Shown here piece after piece: positions 13,309 through 24,476 of a stretch of 64,000 nucleotides of DNA. Every line of letters begins with the position of its first letter. Within the stretch, counting starts at the first letter, position 1. A program made the translations under genes and the position numbers. A model generated the notes under the pieces. That model made no database searches and was not told the origin of the DNA. It saw nothing but the letters and a program-made list of their open reading frames with translations. This DNA comes from an uncultured Planctomycetales bacterium (lineage in GTDB: Bacteria > Omnitrophota > Gorgyraeia > Zapsychrales > Fredricksoniimonadaceae): the NCBI GenBank assembly GCA_964572155.1, contig CAZNDZ010000003.1, forward strand, positions 202,224 to 266,223, given 5' to 3'.

Positions 13309-16161
13309 TTATGTGCTTGCTAACCGGTCTTCTTGGGTTTTTGGAGGGGTTAAACCTAAGAGGTTCCATATATTTACAACAGGCGCAATCTTAAAGATCA
13401 CAGGCGTCAAAGAATCAATCCCTTCACGGCGAACCCGTTTAATCATCGCAGGATCAAGACGCATTTGCACCCCTTGGCCATCCTTACGAATAGCCGTGTT
13501 AGCCTGAGTCTTCATTAAATCGATACCACCATGCGTAGCCATGGCTTGATTAGCATGTTGTTTTCGTTCATAAATCCAACTAATAAAAGCCTGTTGATTG
13601 CTTTTTAGACTTGCAAATTTCTCCCCAATTAAATACGCATCCTGAGAATTCCAAGGATCAACCAAAATGAGATACACACCAGCTAAAAACTGCGCGTCCA
13701 CATCTTCACTTGTTGCTAAAATCTTACGCATTTTATCCTTACCGCTTAATGTTAAATCTTCAAACAGTTCCGGAAAAAATGAATCAGGCTTTTCTTTAGT
13801 CTGTAAATCACCACTATATAGCTCTTCCACAATGCCTTTAAACTTACTTAACAATAGCGCCTCTTGTTCTTCATCAAAAATCAACTCCCTCTTTGAATAC
13901 TGTGCAATATTATATTCAAGCAGAATTCGAGTAAAGTGTTTTAGAAACTTAATTGGCTCACTTTTAACGCTCTCATCATTAAAAACATCTCGGGCAGGCG
14001 CCACAACCAAAGTTTCCTTTCTCAAAGGTGGAACAGCAACTTCTTCCCTAATACTACTTTTAACAATATCAGTTAGAACAAGTGCATTCGGATGCTGGAG
14101 ATCCAAATCTGATAGACGCTTTCTCATGTCACTATTAACAAACTTTCCTACAAAATCTTGCCAATACACACCATCTTGTTTATCAATTTTCTTCGAGAAG
14201 AACTTAACTAATATCGTCAAATTAAGCTGAGCACCTTTTAAGTAGGCCAGCCACACAATCCTTTCCGCTTTACTCATTTTCTTTGGGTCTTGTTTAATCA
14301 ACATGTCAATAAAATCTAGATAATGACCCACATTTTGCTTCAAATGGATAAATCTCTCATCTATCCCTTGACCCTCTTTTAACGATTGATTTATCTTTGC
14401 CACAAGGTCTTTGACGGTAAAAGCATTGATCAATTTCTTTGCTTGCGCACGCATATCTAACATTTTTCCAAACGATTCTTTTCTTAACTTATACACACTT
14501 AAATCCTCAACAGAAATTGTCATCAACTTATCTAACAATACAATTAACTTATCCTCAAAAGGTGTTCGAATAACCGCATCTTGTTGCAATTTTAAATAAT
14601 ACTCATGTGCTTCTATAATGAGTTCTTGTGTACGAAAATCATACAAACGCATTATGAAATTGATGACTTGTAAAATCTCATCCAACCTTGATCGTTCTAC
14701 ATCATTTAAAACATCCGTTTCTAGATCATGTCGTCGTTGTTGAACACCTTTCGCTCGATCAATGATGCCCCAAACTTTTTCTAAATCACCCTTACCAACA
14801 TAATCTTCTACTTGTGCCTTTGAAATATCTGCTCCTGGCTTAAGGCGAACGGTTGTAGGTGAAACCTCCTCCCAAATGCTATATTCCATTTGAGGGTCAA
14901 TGGGTGTTAGTTGAATAGATTGGATCATCAATAAACTTATCGTTGAGATCTCAACTTCTCCACCATTTAATTCATACGCAATGAGCCGTTCAATCTTATT
15001 CAGCTCCCCACTATCAAAGGTAACACCCTCATCAATACCGGTTATAAAACGCGCTGATTTAGCTGCTTCATTAATAGCAGTCATCGCCGCATTTTTGTTC
15101 GACGTAATTAAACCTGCAGATATTTGTTTTAAACCATTTGGTAATTGACCATAAAAATCACGAACTACCGTTGGGGTAGCTGCCATCGCTGCATTTACTC
15201 CTCCAGAAAAATACTTCTTTGGAACTTCTGAAACTGCGCCTTCTTTCACATAATTAAAAACACCTTTTTTGTATGCTTGGACATAACGATCAAAGATTTT
15301 TTCTTTTATATCCTTATCCTTAAGATCAATCCCCTTCACCATTGATTTATCTGCATAAGCTTGATTCAGGATACTGGCTTTTAAATTATTTTTATACCAA
15401 CCTGCCAAGATGATGGCATTAAATATCTGGCGCAATGGCGCAAAATGTTTACCTTCATTGACTTCACGTTCAAGTTCTGGCAATATCACATCACGTATAG
15501 CTTGAGCTGAAGGATTTTGTTTGTGTGTTTGTATGCCATGCTTCTGTGTGGCTAAATAATCTTCTTCTAACATGACCTTTAAATGGCTTTTGGTCACAAA
15601 CGCTGTCTGCCCATGTTCATAAACTTCTGCTTGATCGGCCATGATCCAGACTTTATTAAACGTATTCACAGGTACATTGTTTGTCTTCGCATAAACCTTA
15701 TCCCAAAATGTTTTACCTAATGCTTTCTCTGGATAAATTAATGACGCCGTGAGTTGCTTTAAAATATAATCTTGGGCCAACATATCCCGCCCCATGTCTG
15801 TCTGACCTAACGCATTGTTAATCGTCCTATCCTTTTCATAAGGGCTTAGATTAACCCATAATTCTTTGGCAGGCACAGTCAACGCCGCTAAGAAATATTT
15901 GATTTGCACAGCGCCTTCTTGTTGTAACGCATCATCTTTTAAACCATCTTGCCCTGGATCCATAATGAAATCAAAAAGAAAAGGATTGTCTTTATGAACA
16001 GTAATACCCTTGATCATAGCTGGTTGATAGGCATGGCTTAAACCAACCATACTCCCAGGCTCTGGCAAACTTAGCAGAGGGGCTGCTTGGGCCTGAGGAA
16101 CGGCAACCATGGACACACTCAAGCTCACCACTAAAAAGAAAACCAGTGATTTCTTAAACAT
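13309..16161 (-). CDS. large secreted protein, paralog 1 of an unrecognised three-member family (conserved N/C modules, divergent centre)
   Basis: Start set at MFKKSLVFFLVVSLSVSMVAVPQAQA^APLL by paralogy; the ORF-track start is 36 nt upstream. 950 aa; shares a ~330-aa N domain and ~70-aa C module with 16269..20249 and 20314..24153. Confidence 0.75.
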   Translation of the reverse strand: MFKKSLVFFLVVSLSVSMVAVPQAQAAPLLSLPEPGSMVGLSHAYQPAMIKGITVHKDNPFLFDFIMDPGQDGLKDDALQQEGAVQIKYFLAALTVPAKELWVNLSPYEKDRTINNALGQTDMGRDMLAQDYILKQLTASLIYPEKALGKTFWDKVYAKTNNVPVNTFNKVWIMADQAEVYEHGQTAFVTKSHLKVMLEEDYLATQKHGIQTHKQNPSAQAIRDVILPELEREVNEGKHFAPLRQIFNAIILAGWYKNNLKASILNQAYADKSMVKGIDLKDKDIKEKIFDRYVQAYKKGVFNYVKEGAVSEVPKKYFSGGVNAAMAATPTVVRDFYGQLPNGLKQISAGLITSNKNAAMTAINEAAKSARFITGIDEGVTFDSGELNKIERLIAYELNGGEVEISTISLLMIQSIQLTPIDPQMEYSIWEEVSPTTVRLKPGADISKAQVEDYVGKGDLEKVWGIIDRAKGVQQRRHDLETDVLNDVERSRLDEILQVINFIMRLYDFRTQELIIEAHEYYLKLQQDAVIRTPFEDKLIVLLDKLMTISVEDLSVYKLRKESFGKMLDMRAQAKKLINAFTVKDLVAKINQSLKEGQGIDERFIHLKQNVGHYLDFIDMLIKQDPKKMSKAERIVWLAYLKGAQLNLTILVKFFSKKIDKQDGVYWQDFVGKFVNSDMRKRLSDLDLQHPNALVLTDIVKSSIREEVAVPPLRKETLVVAPARDVFNDESVKSEPIKFLKHFTRILLEYNIAQYSKRELIFDEEQEALLLSKFKGIVEELYSGDLQTKEKPDSFFPELFEDLTLSGKDKMRKILATSEDVDAQFLAGVYLILVDPWNSQDAYLIGEKFASLKSNQQAFISWIYERKQHANQAMATHGGIDLMKTQANTAIRKDGQGVQMRLDPAMIKRVRREGIDSLTPVIFKIAPVVNIWNLLGLTPPKTQEDRLAST
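13376..13482. repeat. 3' coding block of paralog 1, ~90% nucleotide-identical to 16336..16442
   Basis: Hand alignment of …ttaaagatcacaggcgtcaaagaatcaatccc…cgcatttgcacccctt… gives about 10 mismatches in 107 nt. Protein identity across the whole C module is lower. Confidence 0.7.
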
Positions 16162-16268
16162 GTTCAATAAATAACAAATTTTAAAATCAACAACCATTAA
16201 AATACCTCTCTCATTAAAACAAGATGCAAATTAAATTTTCTTCGCTACAAAATCATTACTTCTAGGGG

Positions 16269-19200
16269 TTAATTTAAAGCGATTTTTGTTGCAGCAGATG
16301 TTGGGGGCGTTAACCCTAACAATGACCAAATATTTACAACAGGTGAAACCTTAAAGATCACAGGCGTCAAAGAATCAATCCCCTCACGGCGAACCCGCTC
16401 AATCATCGCCGGATCAATCCGCATTTGCACCCCTTGACCATCTTTTCGTACAGCCGTATTATCCAACGTCTTCTTCAAGTCAATACCACCGTTTGTAACC
16501 ATGGCTGAATTAAAAAACCCTTTAGCAGATGGCAAACCAGCAAAAATACGCTCTTTCCATTGGGGGCTCACGCCTGCAGGTGCTAATTTATCCCATAAAG
16601 AATCCGGATCAATCGTACCATCTTCTAGCCCTGTTTGAATTATGGGAACAATAGATTTCTTTGCTTTCTTGGCATTCTTAATAGCTATCTCAAATTTCTC
16701 TAACAAAATCTTTTTAATTCTATTTCGATATTTTTCAAAGATATCAAACCTAGGATCAGACCCTCCTGAGATTCCTGACAATGCTCTTAACTCACGCTTT
16801 GTTTCACTTAACAAATTAGCCCAAATCCTTATTTCAACTCTACCTAATGGTGCCGTATTGAGCTCTAATAACTTATCTGTAAAATCTAGGTATTGTTTTA
16901 AAACTTCTTCAAATACTTTCACATCCGATGGCCATCCTAATGCATCAAAGATTTGCATATTTAAAACATCTTCCACGTAACCTTCTTCACTAAATAAACC
17001 CAACTGACTTAATGCATCACGAGCATTTAGAACATTTTTAAATTCCACATTTACTGCGACCATTCCTTTATCATTATCATCAAAATGTAAATGCGTAACA
17101 TCGAAGCCTTGAGTAGTATTTGGATCAGCTCCAGTTAAAGAACCTGGGGTTGAATCAGGTTCGCTTAATTTCTTTTCTACCTGAGCTTTCAAATCAGCAG
17201 CCTTAAACGATGCTTTCAAATCTAACAAATCCCTATTAATGTTTTCTTGCCCATAACCATTTAATTGACCATTTTTTAAACGCTTTAGTTTTCTGATCAC
17301 TGCATCTAATAGTTCGAAATTGTTTCTTGATAAATACTTCGGAGCAATTTCTCCCAACGTCTTGGTTGCATCAAGCAACTCTTTTACATCTGAAAGTTTA
17401 TTAATACGATGTGTTAATTTAAGCCTAAGGATGTCCTTCGCATCTTCATAACGTTCTGCTTTAGTCTTAACTTTGACTTGTTCCTTACCCAACATTTTCT
17501 TTAACCCATCCATAATTCCCATGGCAGCATCAGGAGAGCCTTGTAAAACCGCCGGCACTGTATCAAAAGCGCCACCAAAAGCAAGTATTTCTGGTTTAGC
17601 TTTAACGCGATCTATAATGCTTTGAAACCCTTCTACCAAACCACTTAATTCTGGATCCAAACTCAGGCCATTGCCCAATGTTACATCAGAACCTTTGATG
17701 TTAAACTGACCAACGTAAGCTATTGCCATCTGCAATGTCTCATCGAAATTATCTTTATCGAAATTATATTTAAACTCTAATTGTGCAAAAATATCCCTAA
17801 CATTTAAGGCGATTAAAGAATCGTAAACTTTACCATTGCGTAACTCAACCCCGTTATCGTACTCATAAATATCAATCTTAGCTATGTCTTGCATTAATCG
17901 TTGTATTGCTGGATCCGCATGCAAATCGCCCAATAATTTTTGAATGGAATCATCTGACACATGAACATCACCGCTTATGTTATCTCGTTTAATAGGATCT
18001 AAGCCCTGTTCTTTTCTTAATTCATCTGCAGCTCTAGTTACAGCCGCTAACAAAATTGCAAACGTTCTATTTTGATGAATACCATTCTCATCCGTGATAT
18101 TAAAACCACTGCCTCGATACTGACCTAAGAAATTTTCAACATCGCCTACATTTGAGAAATCCTTGATTTGAATAAAATACGCAACAACGTCGGACAATCT
18201 AGCAAGATTCATCACGCCGCCATCTTGAATCTTTGCAAGATATTCACGTGGCGTGGTTGTAAAATCTACACCATTTACGAAATCTCTAATCACTTCTTTA
18301 ATCACTTTAAATTGCTCATCCGTAACAGCCATGGCAGGGTCATGACGACAATAATCCTCAACAGCTTTAGCCAATTTAAGAGAAATCACATCATCAAAAC
18401 TTTCAATCTGTGTTTTTAATTGAATTAATTTCTCGCGATTAATTGATGATTGTTCCGATTTAACTTCTTGAAGGGTGATGATCTGGATATTTAATTGATC
18501 TAAAAGATCCAAGATCATGCCATCCACATCAAATTGTATCGAACCCTTTCCTTCTAAAGTTGCCTTCTCATTGACGCTCTTTAAGAACTTCATCAACGCT
18601 TCAAAAGAAATCTTTGTCGGGTTATGTTTGATCAAATATGCAAATGCGTCCACAGCACTATGAATGTCTTTTTGGGTATTGATCACAATATTCAACCTTC
18701 TTACCGCCGTTTCCTCGTCTATTAAAGAAGCAGAACTTTCTTTAGCATCAACAGTTGCTGATAATGCCCCTGATCCGCTATCCATTAATTCACCGGCGCC
18801 AGTTGGAAATTCTCTATTGCTCCACAAGCGCTTAACAATACTTTTTAAAGCATCTAATTTGGTTATGTCTTCTCTTATGCCACGGGGGATTTTATGCCTA
18901 TTATTAATGAGAAAACTTTTTCTCTTACTTAGAACACTATAAAAAAGCGCCATAAATTCACTGATCTTATTACGTACTTCTGACCCACTCTTACCACGAT
19001 AAAGGATCATTTCATTCATGAACTTCTCAATTAATTCATTTGAAATTGTTGCCTCAGGGTTATCTGTGGCTAATCTCAACATTTCATTAGTTTGAAATCT
19101 GAAATCTGCTTGTGTTTTGATTGGATCCCCAAGCACCATAACTCCGTATTGACGCGCATTCGCTGAAACCTCAACAACCCCAGCTTCCACCATGACCAAC

Positions 19201-20249
19201 GTATCTGAAAATCCTGTACCAGTAAAGCTTTGAACTACCGCCGGATTAACCGCCATCGCAAAATCAACCCCACCTGAAAAATATTTTCTAGGGGTTTTGG
19301 CTTCGTCTTCTTTCACGTAATTGAACACGCCTTTTTTATAGGCTTGTAAATAGCGGTCGAAGATTTGTTGTTTGATGGTTTTGTCTTGAATGTCGATGCC
19401 CTTGACGGTTGATTTATTGGCGTAGACTTCATTGAGCAAACTTGACTTTAAATTATTTTTGTACCAGCCGGCTAAGATGATGGCGTTGAAGATTTGGCGC
19501 AATGGGGCGAAATTCTTGCCTTCGTTTACTTCCTTTTCCAATTGCGGGATGATCACTTCTCTTAATACTGCGGCAGATGTATCGTTTGAGTTTACTGGCG
19601 CGGCGTGTTTTTCTGTGGCTAAATAATCTTGTTCCAACATGACCTTCAAATGCGCTTTGGTGACAAACGCAGTTTGATTGTGTTCGTAGACTTCGGCTTG
19701 ATCAGCCATGATCCAAACTTTATTAAAGGTGTTTACAGGAACTTGGGCATTGCCGAACTTTTGCTTGGTCTTGGCATAGACTTCGTTCCAGAAGGTCTTA
19801 CCTAAGTCTTTTTCAGGATATATTAAGGAAGCGGTGATTTGCTTTAATATATAATCTTGGGCTAAAAGGTCGCGGCCCATATCGGTTTGGCCTAAAGCTT
19901 CATCAACGGTCCTATTTTTTTCGTAGGGTGACAAATTAACCCATAAGGAACTTGCTGGCACGGTTAAGGCAGCTAAGAAGTAGCGGATCAGCCTATCACC
20001 CTCTTGCTTTAACGCAGGTTCTGAGGCATTTTCTTGACCTGGATCCACAATAAAATCAAACAAGAACGGATTATCCTGATTTACCGTTAAACCCTTTAAC
20101 ATCAATGGTTTATACGCGGCGCTTAACCCAACCATGGCGCCTGGTTCAGGAAGGCCTAATAAAGGCGCTGCATAGGCATTTGGCTGTGGCGCTACAATCG
20201 AAAAAGAGACCGCAACGGTTACAAAAATAGATAAAATTTTCTTATACAT
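16269..20249 (-). CDS. large secreted protein, paralog 2 of the same family
   Basis: MYKKILSIFVTVAVSFSIVAPQPNAYA^APLLGLPEPG…; 1326 aa. I used the first ATG (the ORF-track start is TTG). Conserved N and C modules, unique 900-aa centre. Confidence 0.75.
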   Translation of the reverse strand: MYKKILSIFVTVAVSFSIVAPQPNAYAAPLLGLPEPGAMVGLSAAYKPLMLKGLTVNQDNPFLFDFIVDPGQENASEPALKQEGDRLIRYFLAALTVPASSLWVNLSPYEKNRTVDEALGQTDMGRDLLAQDYILKQITASLIYPEKDLGKTFWNEVYAKTKQKFGNAQVPVNTFNKVWIMADQAEVYEHNQTAFVTKAHLKVMLEQDYLATEKHAAPVNSNDTSAAVLREVIIPQLEKEVNEGKNFAPLRQIFNAIILAGWYKNNLKSSLLNEVYANKSTVKGIDIQDKTIKQQIFDRYLQAYKKGVFNYVKEDEAKTPRKYFSGGVDFAMAVNPAVVQSFTGTGFSDTLVMVEAGVVEVSANARQYGVMVLGDPIKTQADFRFQTNEMLRLATDNPEATISNELIEKFMNEMILYRGKSGSEVRNKISEFMALFYSVLSKRKSFLINNRHKIPRGIREDITKLDALKSIVKRLWSNREFPTGAGELMDSGSGALSATVDAKESSASLIDEETAVRRLNIVINTQKDIHSAVDAFAYLIKHNPTKISFEALMKFLKSVNEKATLEGKGSIQFDVDGMILDLLDQLNIQIITLQEVKSEQSSINREKLIQLKTQIESFDDVISLKLAKAVEDYCRHDPAMAVTDEQFKVIKEVIRDFVNGVDFTTTPREYLAKIQDGGVMNLARLSDVVAYFIQIKDFSNVGDVENFLGQYRGSGFNITDENGIHQNRTFAILLAAVTRAADELRKEQGLDPIKRDNISGDVHVSDDSIQKLLGDLHADPAIQRLMQDIAKIDIYEYDNGVELRNGKVYDSLIALNVRDIFAQLEFKYNFDKDNFDETLQMAIAYVGQFNIKGSDVTLGNGLSLDPELSGLVEGFQSIIDRVKAKPEILAFGGAFDTVPAVLQGSPDAAMGIMDGLKKMLGKEQVKVKTKAERYEDAKDILRLKLTHRINKLSDVKELLDATKTLGEIAPKYLSRNNFELLDAVIRKLKRLKNGQLNGYGQENINRDLLDLKASFKAADLKAQVEKKLSEPDSTPGSLTGADPNTTQGFDVTHLHFDDNDKGMVAVNVEFKNVLNARDALSQLGLFSEEGYVEDVLNMQIFDALGWPSDVKVFEEVLKQYLDFTDKLLELNTAPLGRVEIRIWANLLSETKRELRALSGISGGSDPRFDIFEKYRNRIKKILLEKFEIAIKNAKKAKKSIVPIIQTGLEDGTIDPDSLWDKLAPAGVSPQWKERIFAGLPSAKGFFNSAMVTNGGIDLKKTLDNTAVRKDGQGVQMRIDPAMIERVRREGIDSLTPVIFKVSPVVNIWSLLGLTPPTSAATKIALN
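16336..16442. repeat. 3' coding block of paralog 2, near-identical copy of 13376..13482
   Basis: See the partner entry 13376..13482. Confidence 0.7.
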
Positions 20250-20313
20250 GCGCAAAGGATACCATACTTTCCATGGGAATACCAGTTTACGTAACTTGCT
20301 ACCAATATTTGTT

Positions 20314-23300
20314 TTATGGGGGTGTCAGGCCAATCGTTTGCCAAATGTTGGCAATAGGTGTGATATTAAAAATCACCGGCGTCAAAGACTCAATCCCGTC
20401 CCGCTTAAAGCGCTCAATCATAGCAGGATCAATATCCATTTGTACACCATTTTCCAAATCTTTTTTAACCAATGTATTATCAGCCGTAGCTTTTAAATCG
20501 ATACCACCGTATTGATCTGTGGTATTCATGGCCAAGTCCATGCCTCTTAAAGTTGGCGCATTCCAAGTCAACGCATCAAGTCTTGATAATAAAGTTTTAA
20601 GCTGATTTCTCTGTCCTTCTTCAATATACTTATCCTCTAACAATATGGTTACATTTCGTTTAAGCAAATCAATATCATAATCAATTGACTCAAGCACATA
20701 TTGCCTATGCCCGTTGTTAAATGATGCTAATATCTTCTCATATCCCTCGACAGCACTTGTTAAACGCTGCAAGATAAAGCCCACAAATAATGATTTTAAC
20801 TCCTTAGCTTCCTCAATATTTAAGAGCAAGCCCTTATCTATGCTTAACGTTGTCTGTTGTGTCGCTAAAAAATCTTTAAAGGCCAACATGATTTCATGCA
20901 TCGCTTCATTCTTACTCATTTCATTAGCCAAATTCACTAAATAATTTCCAAAGATCTTCGTATTGATGTTCTTGATCCTAAAACTACTTAAAGTAAAGAT
21001 ATCGGTTAAATAGAATACCTTAGCATCTTTCTTATCTTTATACATCGGCGCTAATCGTTGAAACATTACATTTAAATTACTTAAAAACTCTTCCATGTAT
21101 TTGATTTCACGAACATTGTCTTTATTATTGATGCTACGTCGAGCACCATTGATCTTATCCAATAATCCTCGCTCAACTTCCAACCGTCCCCCGATGCTTT
21201 CTTTAACAACTTTTTTACCATCAATGGCATGTTGCAAATCAGCGTTCAACGATGCGCTAACTTCATTTATGGCTTTTTGCCATGCCTCATTTGTATAGGC
21301 ATTTTCCCTTTTAGCCCTTCTACTAACCGCTTTCATCAACTTCTTTGTTTCATCACCCATATGCAATGGACCTTTTCTAGCCAAATGGTATTCGCCACCT
21401 GCTTCCAAAACAACCGCCGGCCCCTCAACTAATTTCTCAAATTCATAAGATCGATCTTTAGGATCTTCGACCTGTGTTAACAATAGAAATGCCCTGCGAT
21501 AACTATTTCTCAACTTCTCTAAATATTCAATTTCAAGACTAAGCCTGAAAACGCGATCATCTAATCTATTCACTGAAGTTCGCAAGCCCTGAAGATTTGA
21601 ACGGCTAAATTCACGCTGTTCAACACCCCTTGAACTAGCAGCGTTCATTGCTTTATCAGGGTAATGCATAAAATCAAATCCACTTCCTCTAAAACCCAAA
21701 CTTCTTAAAACTCTAATCCATACTTCAACTTTTCCCCCATCCATACGTATCGGTTGAATGCCGATCAAATCTTGACCATACTCATTAACAAAACCCTCGA
21801 CTAACAATCTTCCCACATTGCTACGATCACCTTTATTGGCCTCTACAATGTCAATATTCCAACGCTGCTTATCTGAAATCCATGTTGCTAACAATATACC
21901 TTGCGGATTGTTTTTATCTCCAGCATAAAATAAAACAATATCCCCGTCGGGAACGTCTTTATGTCGATCTAAATAATTATTTGTATTAAAAACCCTAACT
22001 GCTGTCTGCCAATTTTTTAAAACTTCTTTAATCTCATCTGTAGTTTCCACATAGTTCGTTTGTGGGGTCGTCATGGCATCATCAGTTGGAACGCTTATCA
22101 AACCTAATTCAACTGCTAAATAAAGCATGTAGTTTGTTCGTTCTTTATCTTTTTCATCTGCTGATAAAATAAACTTTCCGTTAATCAATATTTGCTTAAA
22201 ATATGTTTCTTTGACGGCAAGATCTTGGAATCTTTCCTTTTGTTCTGGTAAACCATCATAATCTGCATATACAGATTCTAGCGATGGTCGATATAGATCG
22301 TTTTTATATACCCACTTAACAGAAATATTTGAATTTCTTCGTTCTACCGTCTTAATAACTCTTCCCTTTAAATCTGCATACGCTTTGGCATCCCAGAACT
22401 TATAATTATTCTTAACATATTCATCATTTAAAAATGGCTCCGCTTGCACACGCAATTCGGCCACAATCTCTTCAAATGTCTTTAAAGGACCACTTATCGG
22501 GTTAGTTTTATTAGCCATTGCTCTATCATTCGACGACATGCGCAAGACAACAAATCCAGCCACCCGTGTTATCTCAACTGGATCATATTCGTCAGTAAAT
22601 GGATTTACGTAATCAAATATTACGACATATTTTCCATCTCGATTCTCCAACTTAAATGCAACATTCTTCCTTGGAAATAACCTAGGATTATCTTCTGAAT
22701 ATTTAACCCATTCACCACCATTAATCCTGTAATGCCCCCATTCAAATTCAATGCGAGAAGTTAATTTTCCTAATAATAACTTAAACTCAGACCTTTTATC
22801 AGCTAACTCAAAAGACACACTTTTGTTCTCATCAGTTAATTGTTTAGAAATCATCGCTGCATCGTTTTTTGTTCTCTTGAATGCCTCTAATTGCTGAATC
22901 AAATCTGATCTCTCTTTAATAATTCTTTCTTTTCGTTCCTGCGATACTTGACTCAATGTGTTTTCATCTAAAAAAGAATCCAATGCTTTTGTTAGTTCAG
23001 CTATGCGTTCTTCCATTTGCTTTAGATTATTTGAATTCATCGCGGCATTTATATTCACCAAACGATCTTTTGACGCTGACATTGCCTCATTAAATTGTCG
23101 CACATCACTTGTCATGTCAGGATTCGCAGCCATACCTGGGTTGACACCGCCGGAGAAGTATTTTCTTGGTGTGATTTGATTATTTTGAGTGTCTTCCTTA
23201 ACAAAATTGAAAACACCTTTTTTGTAGGCTTGCAAATAACGGTTATAGATTTGTTCTTTAATAGTTTTATCATCTAGATCTATGCCTTTGACGGTTGACT

Positions 23301-24153
23301 TGTCGGCATAGACTTGGGTTAACAAGGCGGTTTTAAGATTGTTTTTATACCAGCTGGCTAGGATTAACGCGTTAAAAATTTGACGCAGATTCGCAAAGTT
23401 TTTACCTTCATTAACTTCTTTTTCTAACTCTGGGATGATAATTTCACGGATAATGTTTTGGGTTGTTTTATTTGTTGTTTGAGACGCGATAAATCGCGTC
23501 TCTACGTTATGTTTTTGGGACGCCAAATAATCTTCTTCTAACATGACCTTCAAGTGGGCTTTGGTCACGAAGGCGGTTTGATGGTGTTCGAAGACTTCGG
23601 CTTGGTCGGCGGTGATCCAGACTTTATTAAAGGTGTTAACAGGGATTTGAGTGTTGCCATATAGTTCTTGAGACTTGGCATAGACGCGATCCCAGAATGT
23701 TTTTCCGAGTTCTTTTTCAGGATAAATGAGCGAGGCGGTGATTTGTTTTAAAATGTAGTCTTGGGCTAAAAGGTCGCGGCCCATATCGGTTTGGCTTAAG
23801 GCTTCGGGTGCGGTCTTGTCTTTTTCATATGGCGATAAGTTGACCCACCAATCTTTTTCTGGGATGGCTAAACTTGCGAGGAAGTATTTGATTAACTTAT
23901 CCCCTTCGGCTTTTAAGGCCTCGCCTTGGAGTCGGTCTTGGCCAACATCTACAATAAAATCAAATTGGAATGGATTTGTCTTTGAGACCGTCAAACCCTT
24001 GATCATGGCTGGTGCAAACGGGGTGCTTAGAGAAACCATCTTTCCTGGCTCTGGCAAACCCAATAAAGGCGCGGCATAAGACTTTTGAGGAAGAATTATA
24101 GACGTTGCCGTAAATGCGACAATTAAGATGTAAATAAGGGATTTTCTATACAT
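20314..24153 (-). CDS. large secreted protein, paralog 3 of the same family
   Basis: MYRKSLIYILIVAFTATSIILPQKSYA^APLLGLPEPG…; 1279 aa; conserved N and C modules, unique centre. Confidence 0.75.
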   Translation of the reverse strand: MYRKSLIYILIVAFTATSIILPQKSYAAPLLGLPEPGKMVSLSTPFAPAMIKGLTVSKTNPFQFDFIVDVGQDRLQGEALKAEGDKLIKYFLASLAIPEKDWWVNLSPYEKDKTAPEALSQTDMGRDLLAQDYILKQITASLIYPEKELGKTFWDRVYAKSQELYGNTQIPVNTFNKVWITADQAEVFEHHQTAFVTKAHLKVMLEEDYLASQKHNVETRFIASQTTNKTTQNIIREIIIPELEKEVNEGKNFANLRQIFNALILASWYKNNLKTALLTQVYADKSTVKGIDLDDKTIKEQIYNRYLQAYKKGVFNFVKEDTQNNQITPRKYFSGGVNPGMAANPDMTSDVRQFNEAMSASKDRLVNINAAMNSNNLKQMEERIAELTKALDSFLDENTLSQVSQERKERIIKERSDLIQQLEAFKRTKNDAAMISKQLTDENKSVSFELADKRSEFKLLLGKLTSRIEFEWGHYRINGGEWVKYSEDNPRLFPRKNVAFKLENRDGKYVVIFDYVNPFTDEYDPVEITRVAGFVVLRMSSNDRAMANKTNPISGPLKTFEEIVAELRVQAEPFLNDEYVKNNYKFWDAKAYADLKGRVIKTVERRNSNISVKWVYKNDLYRPSLESVYADYDGLPEQKERFQDLAVKETYFKQILINGKFILSADEKDKERTNYMLYLAVELGLISVPTDDAMTTPQTNYVETTDEIKEVLKNWQTAVRVFNTNNYLDRHKDVPDGDIVLFYAGDKNNPQGILLATWISDKQRWNIDIVEANKGDRSNVGRLLVEGFVNEYGQDLIGIQPIRMDGGKVEVWIRVLRSLGFRGSGFDFMHYPDKAMNAASSRGVEQREFSRSNLQGLRTSVNRLDDRVFRLSLEIEYLEKLRNSYRRAFLLLTQVEDPKDRSYEFEKLVEGPAVVLEAGGEYHLARKGPLHMGDETKKLMKAVSRRAKRENAYTNEAWQKAINEVSASLNADLQHAIDGKKVVKESIGGRLEVERGLLDKINGARRSINNKDNVREIKYMEEFLSNLNVMFQRLAPMYKDKKDAKVFYLTDIFTLSSFRIKNINTKIFGNYLVNLANEMSKNEAMHEIMLAFKDFLATQQTTLSIDKGLLLNIEEAKELKSLFVGFILQRLTSAVEGYEKILASFNNGHRQYVLESIDYDIDLLKRNVTILLEDKYIEEGQRNQLKTLLSRLDALTWNAPTLRGMDLAMNTTDQYGGIDLKATADNTLVKKDLENGVQMDIDPAMIERFKRDGIESLTPVIFNITPIANIWQTIGLTPP

Positions 24154-24206
24154 ACGGAATTATGTATAGAATAGCATATAGATATTATAAATGCCACTTT
24201 TGGGTT

Positions 24207-24476
24207 TTAGCTTGGATGGCACGCACAACCGCCGCCACAAGAGCCTGAAGCAGGGTTTGCGGCTGGTTTTGGAGCCTCGCTGGGTGCGGGTTTGTTCTTA
24301 TAATCGGTTTGATAAAAGCCTGTGCCCTTAAAAATCATGCCTGAACCGCCACCAATCAAACGCGATAATTTATTTTTACCGCATTTGGGACACTTGGTTA
24401 ATTTAGCATCGGTCATGCTTTGAAATTCTTCAAACACATGGCCACACGCAGAACATTCATAATCATAATTAGGCAT
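24207..24476 (-). CDS. FmdB-family zinc-ribbon protein
   Basis: YECSACGHVFE…CPKCG motif; Gly/Cys-rich tail. Confidence 0.7.
   Translation of the reverse strand: MPNYDYECSACGHVFEEFQSMTDAKLTKCPKCGKNKLSRLIGGGSGMIFKGTGFYQTDYKNKPAPSEAPKPAANPASGSCGGGCACHPS

Follow-up and report, generated by a model that had tools for sequence, protein, structure and literature searches.

The textbook examples of interlocus gene conversion are tufA/tufB in Salmonella and the concerted evolution of rRNA operons. Cassette antigenic variation is represented by Neisseria pilE/pilS, Borrelia vlsE, Mycoplasma genitalium mgpB/MgPar and Anaplasma msp2; polymorphic toxin loci with modular ends are represented by Rhs and by CDI, with its CdiA-CT and orphan modules. 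How do the three tandem paralogs p1, p2 and p3, found in a stretch of 64,000 nucleotides from an Omnitrophota genome (the window), compare with these systems?

As in interlocus conversion, p1 and p2 have in common a non-reciprocal patch of high identity, silent sites included, amid otherwise diverged paralogs. Within the patch the paralogs of the one genome pair with each other, while outside it the pairing is that of orthologues. Unlike the tuf and rrn genes, which are homogenized along their whole length, p1 and p2 carry one patch of about 105–117 nt and are saturated over the remainder. Their family, moreover, is uncharacterised, and conversion is here read from the sequence.

The array also resembles the antigenic-variation systems: it belongs to a multigene family with conserved ends around a hypervariable centre and with detectable recombination between copies, in host-dependent bacteria with small genomes. 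But, unlike pilE/pilS, all three paralogs are complete open reading frames, and silent partial cassettes without a promoter are absent. The patch lies in a conserved C-terminal module (C module) rather than in the variable region, and the centres of the family are unrelated to one another (some are whole enzymes in relatives) rather than variants of one segment. With Rhs and CDI the family has in common conserved ‘handle’ regions, swappable modules, tandem arrays and recombination at conserved junctions. Its variable part is, however, central and both of its ends are conserved, the C terminus among them; no immunity-like small open reading frames occupy the gaps between the genes; and no Rhs/YD, toxin or PADLOC match was obtained for the p1/p2/p3 family.

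The array and the tract common to p1 and p2

The three genes (table 1) are full-length open reading frames, each with a start codon and an N terminus resembling a signal peptide, and are separated by gaps of 58–74 nt with no open reading frame inside. The true start of p1 is probably Met13, at 16161 (MFKKSL...); the database form of p2 has 1326 residues and starts at the ATG at 20249. In p1 the signal-peptide-like N terminus is followed by an N module, a unique centre and the C module. The end modules of p2 are the same as those of p1, and its centre is unrelated. Indeed, no mutual similarity was detectable among the central regions of p1, p2 and p3, which are unalignable. Within the window the nucleotide identity of the modules is only 66–79%, with exact runs of at most 37 nt. 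The genes lying 3′ of p1 and of p2 are not the same, and the intergenic regions are unrelated.

p1, the DUF1015-proximal copy, is the positional orthologue of L001 10001–14215 and of L002 5050–9813, while p3 is the orthologue of L001 5603–9829 (N-module bootstrap 100%). The syntenic loci back both assignments. No orthologue of p2 was found, and the array counts three copies in the window against two at syntenic L001. Exact look-ups of the p1, p3 and P0010 proteins returned no contigs; the clusters of the window's proteins are singletons, and the cluster look-up came without accessions.

Table 1. Coordinates of the array, its modules and its stretches of high identity (positions in the window).
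Feature	Position	Strand	Remarks
p1	13309–16197	-	tandem paralog, 962 aa as longest ORF
p2	16269–20255	-	1328 aa from TTG start
p3	20314–24153	-	1279 aa, dnaJ-proximal copy
N module of p1	15199–16080	-	PLLSLPEPG...KYFSGG, 294 aa
N module of p2	19269–20165	-	
N module of p3	23146–24069	-	
C module of p1	13342–13530	-	GGIDL...LGLTPP
C module of p2	16302–16490	-	
C module of p3	20317–20508	-	73–74% identical to p1/p2 over tract columns
Probable conversion tract, p1 copy	13372–13482	-	encodes (D)G-QGVQMRLDPAMIKRVRREGIDSLTPVIFKIAPVVN
Probable conversion tract, p2 copy	16332–16442	-	exactly 2,960 nt from p1 copy
Longest perfect p1/p2 run	13390–13422 (= 16350–16382)	-	33 nt
p2/p3 exact identity	19855–19891 (= 23759–23795)	-	37 nt, N module, GQTDMGRDLLAQD

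An earlier note on this DNA had aligned 13376–13482 with 16336–16442 by hand and estimated about 90% identity, with some 10 mismatches. The alignment is gapless, 97 of the 107 positions are identical and the mismatches number exactly 10 (90.7%). Since p1 and p2 lie on the minus strand, this block is near their 3′ ends; in p1 some 65 nt separate it from the stop codon downstream. Over the 105 nt of the tract core (13372–13476) 96 positions are identical; the statistical minimum of the tract is 13372–13449. The longest perfect run stands out against the second-longest exact run anywhere in the two genes, which is 17 nt. Only this genome has it; the closest sequences in 83 loci from other genomes differ at six or more positions. 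An independent repeat finder returned the same two copies at 82–83% over 141–212 nt, and p3 at 70%.

The note's further estimates fared almost as well. Flanks far more divergent than the block are indeed what surrounds it: outside the block the C module is identical at 61 of 84 positions (73%), the centres do not align and the tails of p1 and p2 beyond ...TPP are unlike each other. The value of about 75% for p3 over the block is close to that measured (table 1). The figure of around 80% for the N domains of p1 and p2, on the other hand, describes only their best stretches; identity in windows of 12 codons varies between 44% and 83%, and overall it is 71%. Had identity been uniform across the C module, the note held, conversion would have lost its basis. 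Identity is not uniform, and its excess is confined to about 105–117 nt inside that conserved module. With only 35 codons in the tract, its boundaries and its dS are imprecise.

Silent sites and trees

Do silent sites partake of this excess? Silent codons of p1 and p2, those at which both genes encode one and the same amino acid, are identical in 26 of 29 cases in the tract, in 9 of 22 in the C-module flanks and in 95 of 211 in the N module. The last fraction, 0.451, is at the level of saturation, 0.435 being expected from codon usage, as calibrated on the p1 and p2 genes themselves. The dS of the tract is about 0.22; for the saturated N module and C-module flanks it is not computable. At the best silent-site segment 21 of 22 codons are identical (P ~2e-4, by simulation and by permutation), and a Fisher test of the block against the remainder (26/30 versus 112/248) gives P = 1.1e-5. 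A MaxChi-type window yields P ~0.002 whether all sites or only third codon positions are used. As an empirical control we scored 1,968 between-genome pairs of family genes, none of which reaches the score of the p1/p2 tract. Among 68 within-genome pairs, p1/p2 alone combines a high C module with a saturated N module; homogenization of the C module as a family-wide rule was not seen among these pairs.

Trees built from different parts of the genes disagree. The N module gives the grouping of p1 with p2 a bootstrap of 0%, the tract one of 99.6%. With the C-module flanks, p1 joins L1b, the orthologue of p1 at a syntenic locus of metagenomic origin, at 87%, and p2 at 9%. In a comparison of 117 proteins of the family, the tract of p1 finds its best match in p2 and vice versa (89% amino acid identity, the next best being 71–74%), while in the N module each ranks only fourth for the other. 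p1 and p2 belong to the same clade, and their tract is unlike L1b and L2b. The tract is a mosaic, young at silent sites with old sequence on both sides; it pairs the two paralogs of this genome, while its flanks pair p1 with the orthologue from another genome. The silent-site excess, the bounded tract and the incongruent trees, together with the tests along the genes (scan P ~2e-4, MaxChi-type P ~0.002), bear out the earlier suggestion of recombination or conversion between p1 and p2.

p3 lies outside the significant tract. Its dS from p1 and p2 in the tract is about 0.8–0.9, somewhat better than saturation, and the silent identity of p1 and p2 to L2a, at 15–16 of 22–23 codons, is likewise somewhat above saturation. 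These values hint at older exchanges or at a mild local codon preference.

A second patch, absent from the earlier note's list, joins the N modules of p2 and p3 over 37 identical nucleotides (table 1). The significance of the run is marginal (P 0.03–0.07), and matches to it with three to four mismatches occur in L002, L006 and L056, from other genomes. Given the marginal P and these near-matches in unrelated genomes we do not call it conversion; it is ambiguous.

Origin of the tract

How did this mosaic arise? We conclude, with a probability of roughly 0.86, that the tract is the product of short-patch, non-reciprocal gene conversion between paralogs. Some 105–117 nt of the C module would have been copied between the tandem, directly oriented p1 and p2, long after their duplication and after the split from the lineages of the syntenic L001 and L002. 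On the general model, RecA-type strand invasion would have been followed by correction of the heteroduplex, and the paralog on the same or on the sister chromosome would have served as repair template. Alternatively, a third, unsampled paralog may have converted both p1 and p2; such a donor may exist since only 64 kb of the genome is in view. The tract dS of ~0.22 suggests that about 9–10 substitutions have accumulated since, so that ‘recent’, as the event had been described, is apt only relative to the age of the genes. Neither end of the patch reaches beyond the conserved C module, and therefore a piece of the module was homogenized and no central cassette was moved. Conversion between paralogs is in itself an ordinary process, and the p1/p2 tract on its own is routine.

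Might the tract instead be the remnant of a recombination junction, left when a crossover or a partial duplication, for example in a cassette swap, passed a piece of one gene's C module to the other as the array was built? Such a chimeric origin draws on the module-bounded mosaics that exist in other Omnitrophota genomes and on the varying copy number of the syntenic array (three here, two in L001). A single crossover, however, would leave young sequence on one side, reaching to wherever the exchanged segment stops. The p1/p2 tract has old sequence on either side (9 of 22 silent codons identical in the C-module flanks); the flanks and tail of p1 go with those of its orthologue (87% bootstrap), and the centres bear no relation to each other. 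With old flanks on both sides two closely spaced exchanges are needed, which is to say a conversion patch. We consider a chimeric origin unlikely.

Constraint at the nucleotide level, from an RNA structure, a regulatory site or a translational signal within the coding sequence, could also keep silent sites alike. A sub-patch, GGGATTGAxTCTTTGACGCCxGTGATxTTT, is common to p1, p2, p3 and L2a, and the dS of p1 and p2 from p3 in the tract is below saturation, both of which accord with constraint. But the tract columns are without silent-site conservation between genomes (0.368, against 0.392 for the whole C module), and only 5–8 of 21–23 silent codons of p1 and p2 are identical to those of L1b, L83 and L1a. 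These cross-genome comparisons rule out a general silent-site constraint of the C module. Nor do p1 and p2 have the same downstream genes or related intergenic regions. An Rfam search of the tract gave no match at E up to 1, its folding is unremarkable (z-scores −0.74 and −0.58) and it is not enriched in promoter-like or terminator-like sites; on these results we reject the idea that the tract contains a regulatory element or a structured RNA. The explanation by constraint is close to refuted, and we think it very improbable.

Finally, chance, codon usage or misassembly (repeats collapsed or made chimeric) is scarcely credible, short as the tract is and metagenome-derived as the genome is: permutation, simulation and the between-genome control reject chance, the expectation is already calibrated on the genes' own codon usage, and an assembly chimera would give 100% identity running on into one flank, whereas we see a 91% patch with 10 scattered differences between two old flanks.

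The family and its modules

What kind of genes are these? p1, p2 and p3 belong to an uncharacterised family of secreted-protein genes with more than 3,800 members and several copies per genome. Its members have a signal-peptide-like N terminus, conserved end modules and centres that are unrelated between copies; in relatives the centre sometimes holds a whole housekeeping enzyme of cytoplasmic type (adenylate kinase, phosphoglycerate kinase, enolase or glutamate dehydrogenase). Searches of Pfam, NCBIfam, PADLOC and PDB sequences with the family gave no match, and neither the papers and preprints on Omnitrophota that were consulted nor keyword searches yielded any account of the family or of gene conversion in the phylum. 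The N module is modelled as a bundle of long helices with β-hairpins. No significant, recognizable fold was found for the two end modules. The top Foldseek matches of both models are ClyA-family tripartite α-pore-forming toxins (SmhA, NheA, MakA/B/E), a lead as to fold only. These matches are not significant (E of at least 0.026, probability at most 0.13, TM 0.12–0.16), and the toxins have no sequence similarity to the family.

The earlier note had also seen in such patches a means of shuffling central cassettes between conserved ends. The p1/p2 tract moved none, and it is from other genomes only that recombination bounded by modules receives support: in other Omnitrophota genomes N modules 91–95% identical in nucleotides accompany centres that are unrelated or rearranged. 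A [DN]xAM motif is enriched at the module junctions, where it could be a linker or processing site delimiting cassettes. It is conceivable, though we hold it as a tentative and rather doubtful proposition, that the N and C modules are the recombination handles of a genome-wide exchange that re-assorts central cargo, whole enzymes included. Homologous recombination would then act repeatedly within the modules and at their edges, among many paralogs. Host-dependent nanobacteria would in this way diversify a repertoire of secreted carrier proteins, and the p1/p2 patch would be a small by-product of this traffic.

The p1/p2 tract shows that, in a genome of roughly 1 Mb, members of the family undergo homologous recombination with one another. 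It is also a caution that trees of the family based on its modules can be mosaic. The family context is a more interesting lead than the tract itself. If the conserved ends do mediate the exchange of cassettes, this would be a new route by which host-dependent nanobacteria diversify their secreted repertoire.

Architecture of the array

The three tandem paralogs p1, p2 and p3 encode proteins of four parts: an N terminus judged by eye to be signal-peptide-like (basic residues, a hydrophobic stretch, AQA/AYA then AP), a conserved N module of ~300 aa (PLL.LPEPG ... KYFSGG), a centre that is unalignable between copies, and a conserved C module of ~65 aa (GGIDL ... GVQM.IDPAMI.RV.REGI.SLTPVIF ... 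NIW..LGLTPP). On one side the array is flanked by dnaK-dnaJ and a small zinc-ribbon gene, on the opposite side by DUF1015-accD-ABC genes. Homologues begin at MFKK/MYKK, so the mechanical ORF starts of p1 (16161-16197) and p2 (20249-20255) are probably over-extended. The likely start of p1 is Met13 at 16161; that of p2 is the ATG at 20249, and p2 has 1326 aa in its database form. The gene L2b has an in-frame upstream extension resembling that of p1 (...IWYLLHM and ...ICYLLNM, respectively), suggesting that the sequence upstream of this start is conserved.

Features of the paralog array
Feature	Coordinates	Strand	Length	[DN]xAM sites (aa)	Remarks
p1	13309-16197	minus	962 aa	335, 369, 883, 915	
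p2	16269-20255	minus	1328 aa	329, 637, 907, 1247, 1279	sites in 1326-aa database form numbering
p3	20314-24153	minus	1279 aa	9 sites	
Small zinc-ribbon ORF	24177-24450	minus			between dnaJ and p3; MPNYDYECSACGHVFEEF..., FmdB/Zn_ribbon_8-like
Antisense ORF inside p1	13667-14230	plus	187 aa		most likely spurious
Antisense ORF inside p2	16642-16980	plus	112 aa		most likely spurious

Synteny with the window was seen on two metagenome contigs: L001, with the order hrcA-grpE-dnaK-dnaJ, two paralogs, DUF1015-accD-ABC, and L002, whose contig end reads paralog-DUF1015. Copy number and content of the array vary between these related genomes, with three paralogs in the window (13309-24153) and two in L001 (5603-14215). 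An AAA_14/DUF4143 ATPase gene separates the copies of L002 (2-9813), and a ParE toxin gene lies between dnaJ and the array in L001. The zinc-ribbon ORF, shorter than the ORF length cut-off applied, keeps its synteny with L001.

Identity between p1 and p2

How alike are p1 and p2? Their high-identity segments lie within the 3' parts of two of the three tandem genes. The block at 13376-13482 and 16336-16442, which an earlier note had called near-identical, aligns without gaps at 97 of 107 bases, and in codon-aware windows it is the peak of p1/p2 identity across the alignable parts. The ~80% identity given for the N domain, from one hand-aligned stretch of ~75 nt, is too high for the N module as a whole, which is 71% identical. 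A repeat finder gave 82-83% for p1/p2 over 141-212 nt at the C end (p3, 70%) and 66-79% for the N-module copies.

Silent sites were scored where both genes encode the same residue. The N module has identical codons at 101 of 224 such sites (0.451), against 0.435 expected from p1/p2 codon usage alone; its silent sites are therefore saturated. Identical codons number 26 of 29 in the high-identity patch of the C module, hereafter the tract, and 9 of 22 in the rest of that module. A maximal-segment scan found 21 of 22 identical codons at p1 13372-13449 and p2 16332-16409 (P ~2e-4, by simulation and permutation alike). A Fisher test of block against rest gave P = 1.1e-5, and a MaxChi-type window test P ~0.002 for all sites and the same for third positions alone. 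By the Nei-Gojobori method the tract has a dS of 0.22 and a dN of 0.05; dS for the N module and C flanks is saturated and incalculable. As an empirical null the same scan was applied to 1,968 between-genome family gene pairs from 83 fetched loci, none of which scored above 15.2, short of the 17.1 of p1/p2; all six top scores belong to within-genome pairs.

Exact p1/p2 identity extends over at most 33 nt (13390-13422 = 16350-16382), the second-longest run being 17 nt. In the other loci searched, every match to this 33-mer has at least 6 mismatches. An exact p2/p3 run of 37 nt in the N module (19855-19891 = 23759-23795; GQTDMGRDLLAQD) is of marginal significance, and three loci of other genomes, L002, L006 and L056, match it with 3-4 mismatches. 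Either conversion or local conservation of the nucleotide sequence could account for it.

Origin of the tract

Do the parts of these genes share one history? We bootstrapped neighbour-joining trees from codon alignments that included p1, p2, p3 and four relatives from other genomes. The N module (879 nt) grouped p1 with p2 in 0% of replicates and p3 with its L001 orthologue L1a in 100%; the tract (105 nt) grouped p1 with p2 in 99.6%; the C-module flanks (78 nt) did so in 9% and grouped p1 with its L001 orthologue L1b in 87%. The p1 tail past TPP (KTQEDRLAST) resembles its positional orthologues (NSQADRLS, IPEENRLAGA), not p2. In a comparison of 117 family proteins, the tract of p1 has p2 as its best match and vice versa, at 89% aa identity (next, 71-74%); in the N module each ranks only fourth for the other, after three other-genome proteins.

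Might the tract instead be constrained as DNA? Between genomes, identity at C-module silent sites (12/36 to 25/43) is as low as saturation would give. Over all between-genome pairs, silent identity in the tract columns is 0.368, below the C-module (0.392) and N-module (0.43) means; the tract is therefore without intrinsic DNA-level constraint, and we reject this explanation. An Rfam search of the tract gave no match, its RNA folding is no better than shuffled (z = -0.74 and -0.58), and it shows no enrichment of promoter-like or terminator-like sites. Neither a single crossover nor an assembly chimera would give a young tract between old flanks with discordant trees.

Youth in the patch, age in both flanks and trees that disagree are together the hallmark of short-patch conversion. 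We conclude, with a probability of roughly 0.86, that the tract arose by interparalog gene conversion; the silent-site excess, scan tests and discordant trees bear out the earlier note's reading. The patch, ~105-117 nt, is non-reciprocal-looking and common to two direct repeats offset by 2,960 nt. It postdates divergence from the lineages of L001 and L002; 'recent' holds relative to the genes and no further. Under the general model for ectopic conversion in bacteria, RecA-type repair would have used the paralog as template, with ~9-10 substitutions following. The source might be p1, p2 or a third paralog in another part of the 1.02-Mb genome.

Mosaics and central domains in the wider family

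Does the tract shuffle central cassettes, as had been suggested? The patch is internal to a conserved module and therefore moved no cassette; this tract lends the suggestion no support. Nor is C-module homogenisation a general family trait: of 68 within-genome pairs, p1/p2 alone has high identity in the C module alongside saturation in the N module. Dispersed paralogs of other Omnitrophota MAGs have N modules 91-95% identical in nucleotides over 700-1,270 nt, C modules with protein identity of only 50-60%, and unrelated centres that differ greatly in length (662, 806 and 2,243 aa in one genome). Such module-bounded mosaics, with diverged C modules and centres unrelated, unequal in length or rearranged, are L021/L022 of nDJH13bin20, and L031/L033/L034 and the weaker pair L030/L032 (N module 78% over 953 nt) of MAG_AAO_H125.54. 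Within nDJH13bin20 a sub-cassette differs in position between two genes (441-629 versus 1063-1253, 45% aa identity). Module-bounded recombination or duplication is thus recurrent in the family, and the cassette-exchange idea therefore stays alive as a hypothesis.

What are these proteins? A protein search gave at least 3,886 matches, every named one from Omnitrophica/Omnitrophota, and a scan of species-representative genomes confirmed at least 543 loci, many genomes having more than one. Searches of Pfam, NCBIfam, PADLOC and PDB sequences gave no match to the N and C modules, and no description of the family was found in the searchable literature. AlphaFold models the N module confidently (pTM 0.76 alone; helices and two beta-hairpins), likewise the C module (beta-alpha-beta), and the centre without confidence. 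Foldseek against the PDB returned nothing significant, the best being ClyA-family toxin components (E at least 0.026, TM ~0.15).

The centres of some relatives (P0006, P0031, P0057, P0061, P0046, P0036, P0066) hold complete housekeeping enzyme domains, flanked by the signal-peptide-like N module and the C module: adenylate kinase (1-149/151), phosphoglycerate kinase (3-379/379), glutamate dehydrogenase and enolase. ACP, receiver or HTH domains also occur there. A [DN]xAM motif is ~17-fold enriched in 120 family proteins (4.4 per protein, 0.26 in shuffled sequences). Its sites mark the module junctions, directly behind KYFSGG and 5-22 aa ahead of GGIDL, and further ones fall at internal junctions and, as DPAM, in the C module inside the tract; the motif may serve as a linker or processing site marking off sub-cassettes. 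The p1/p2 conversion is an ordinary phenomenon, a further instance of a known process; the undescribed modular family that surrounds it is the more interesting lead.
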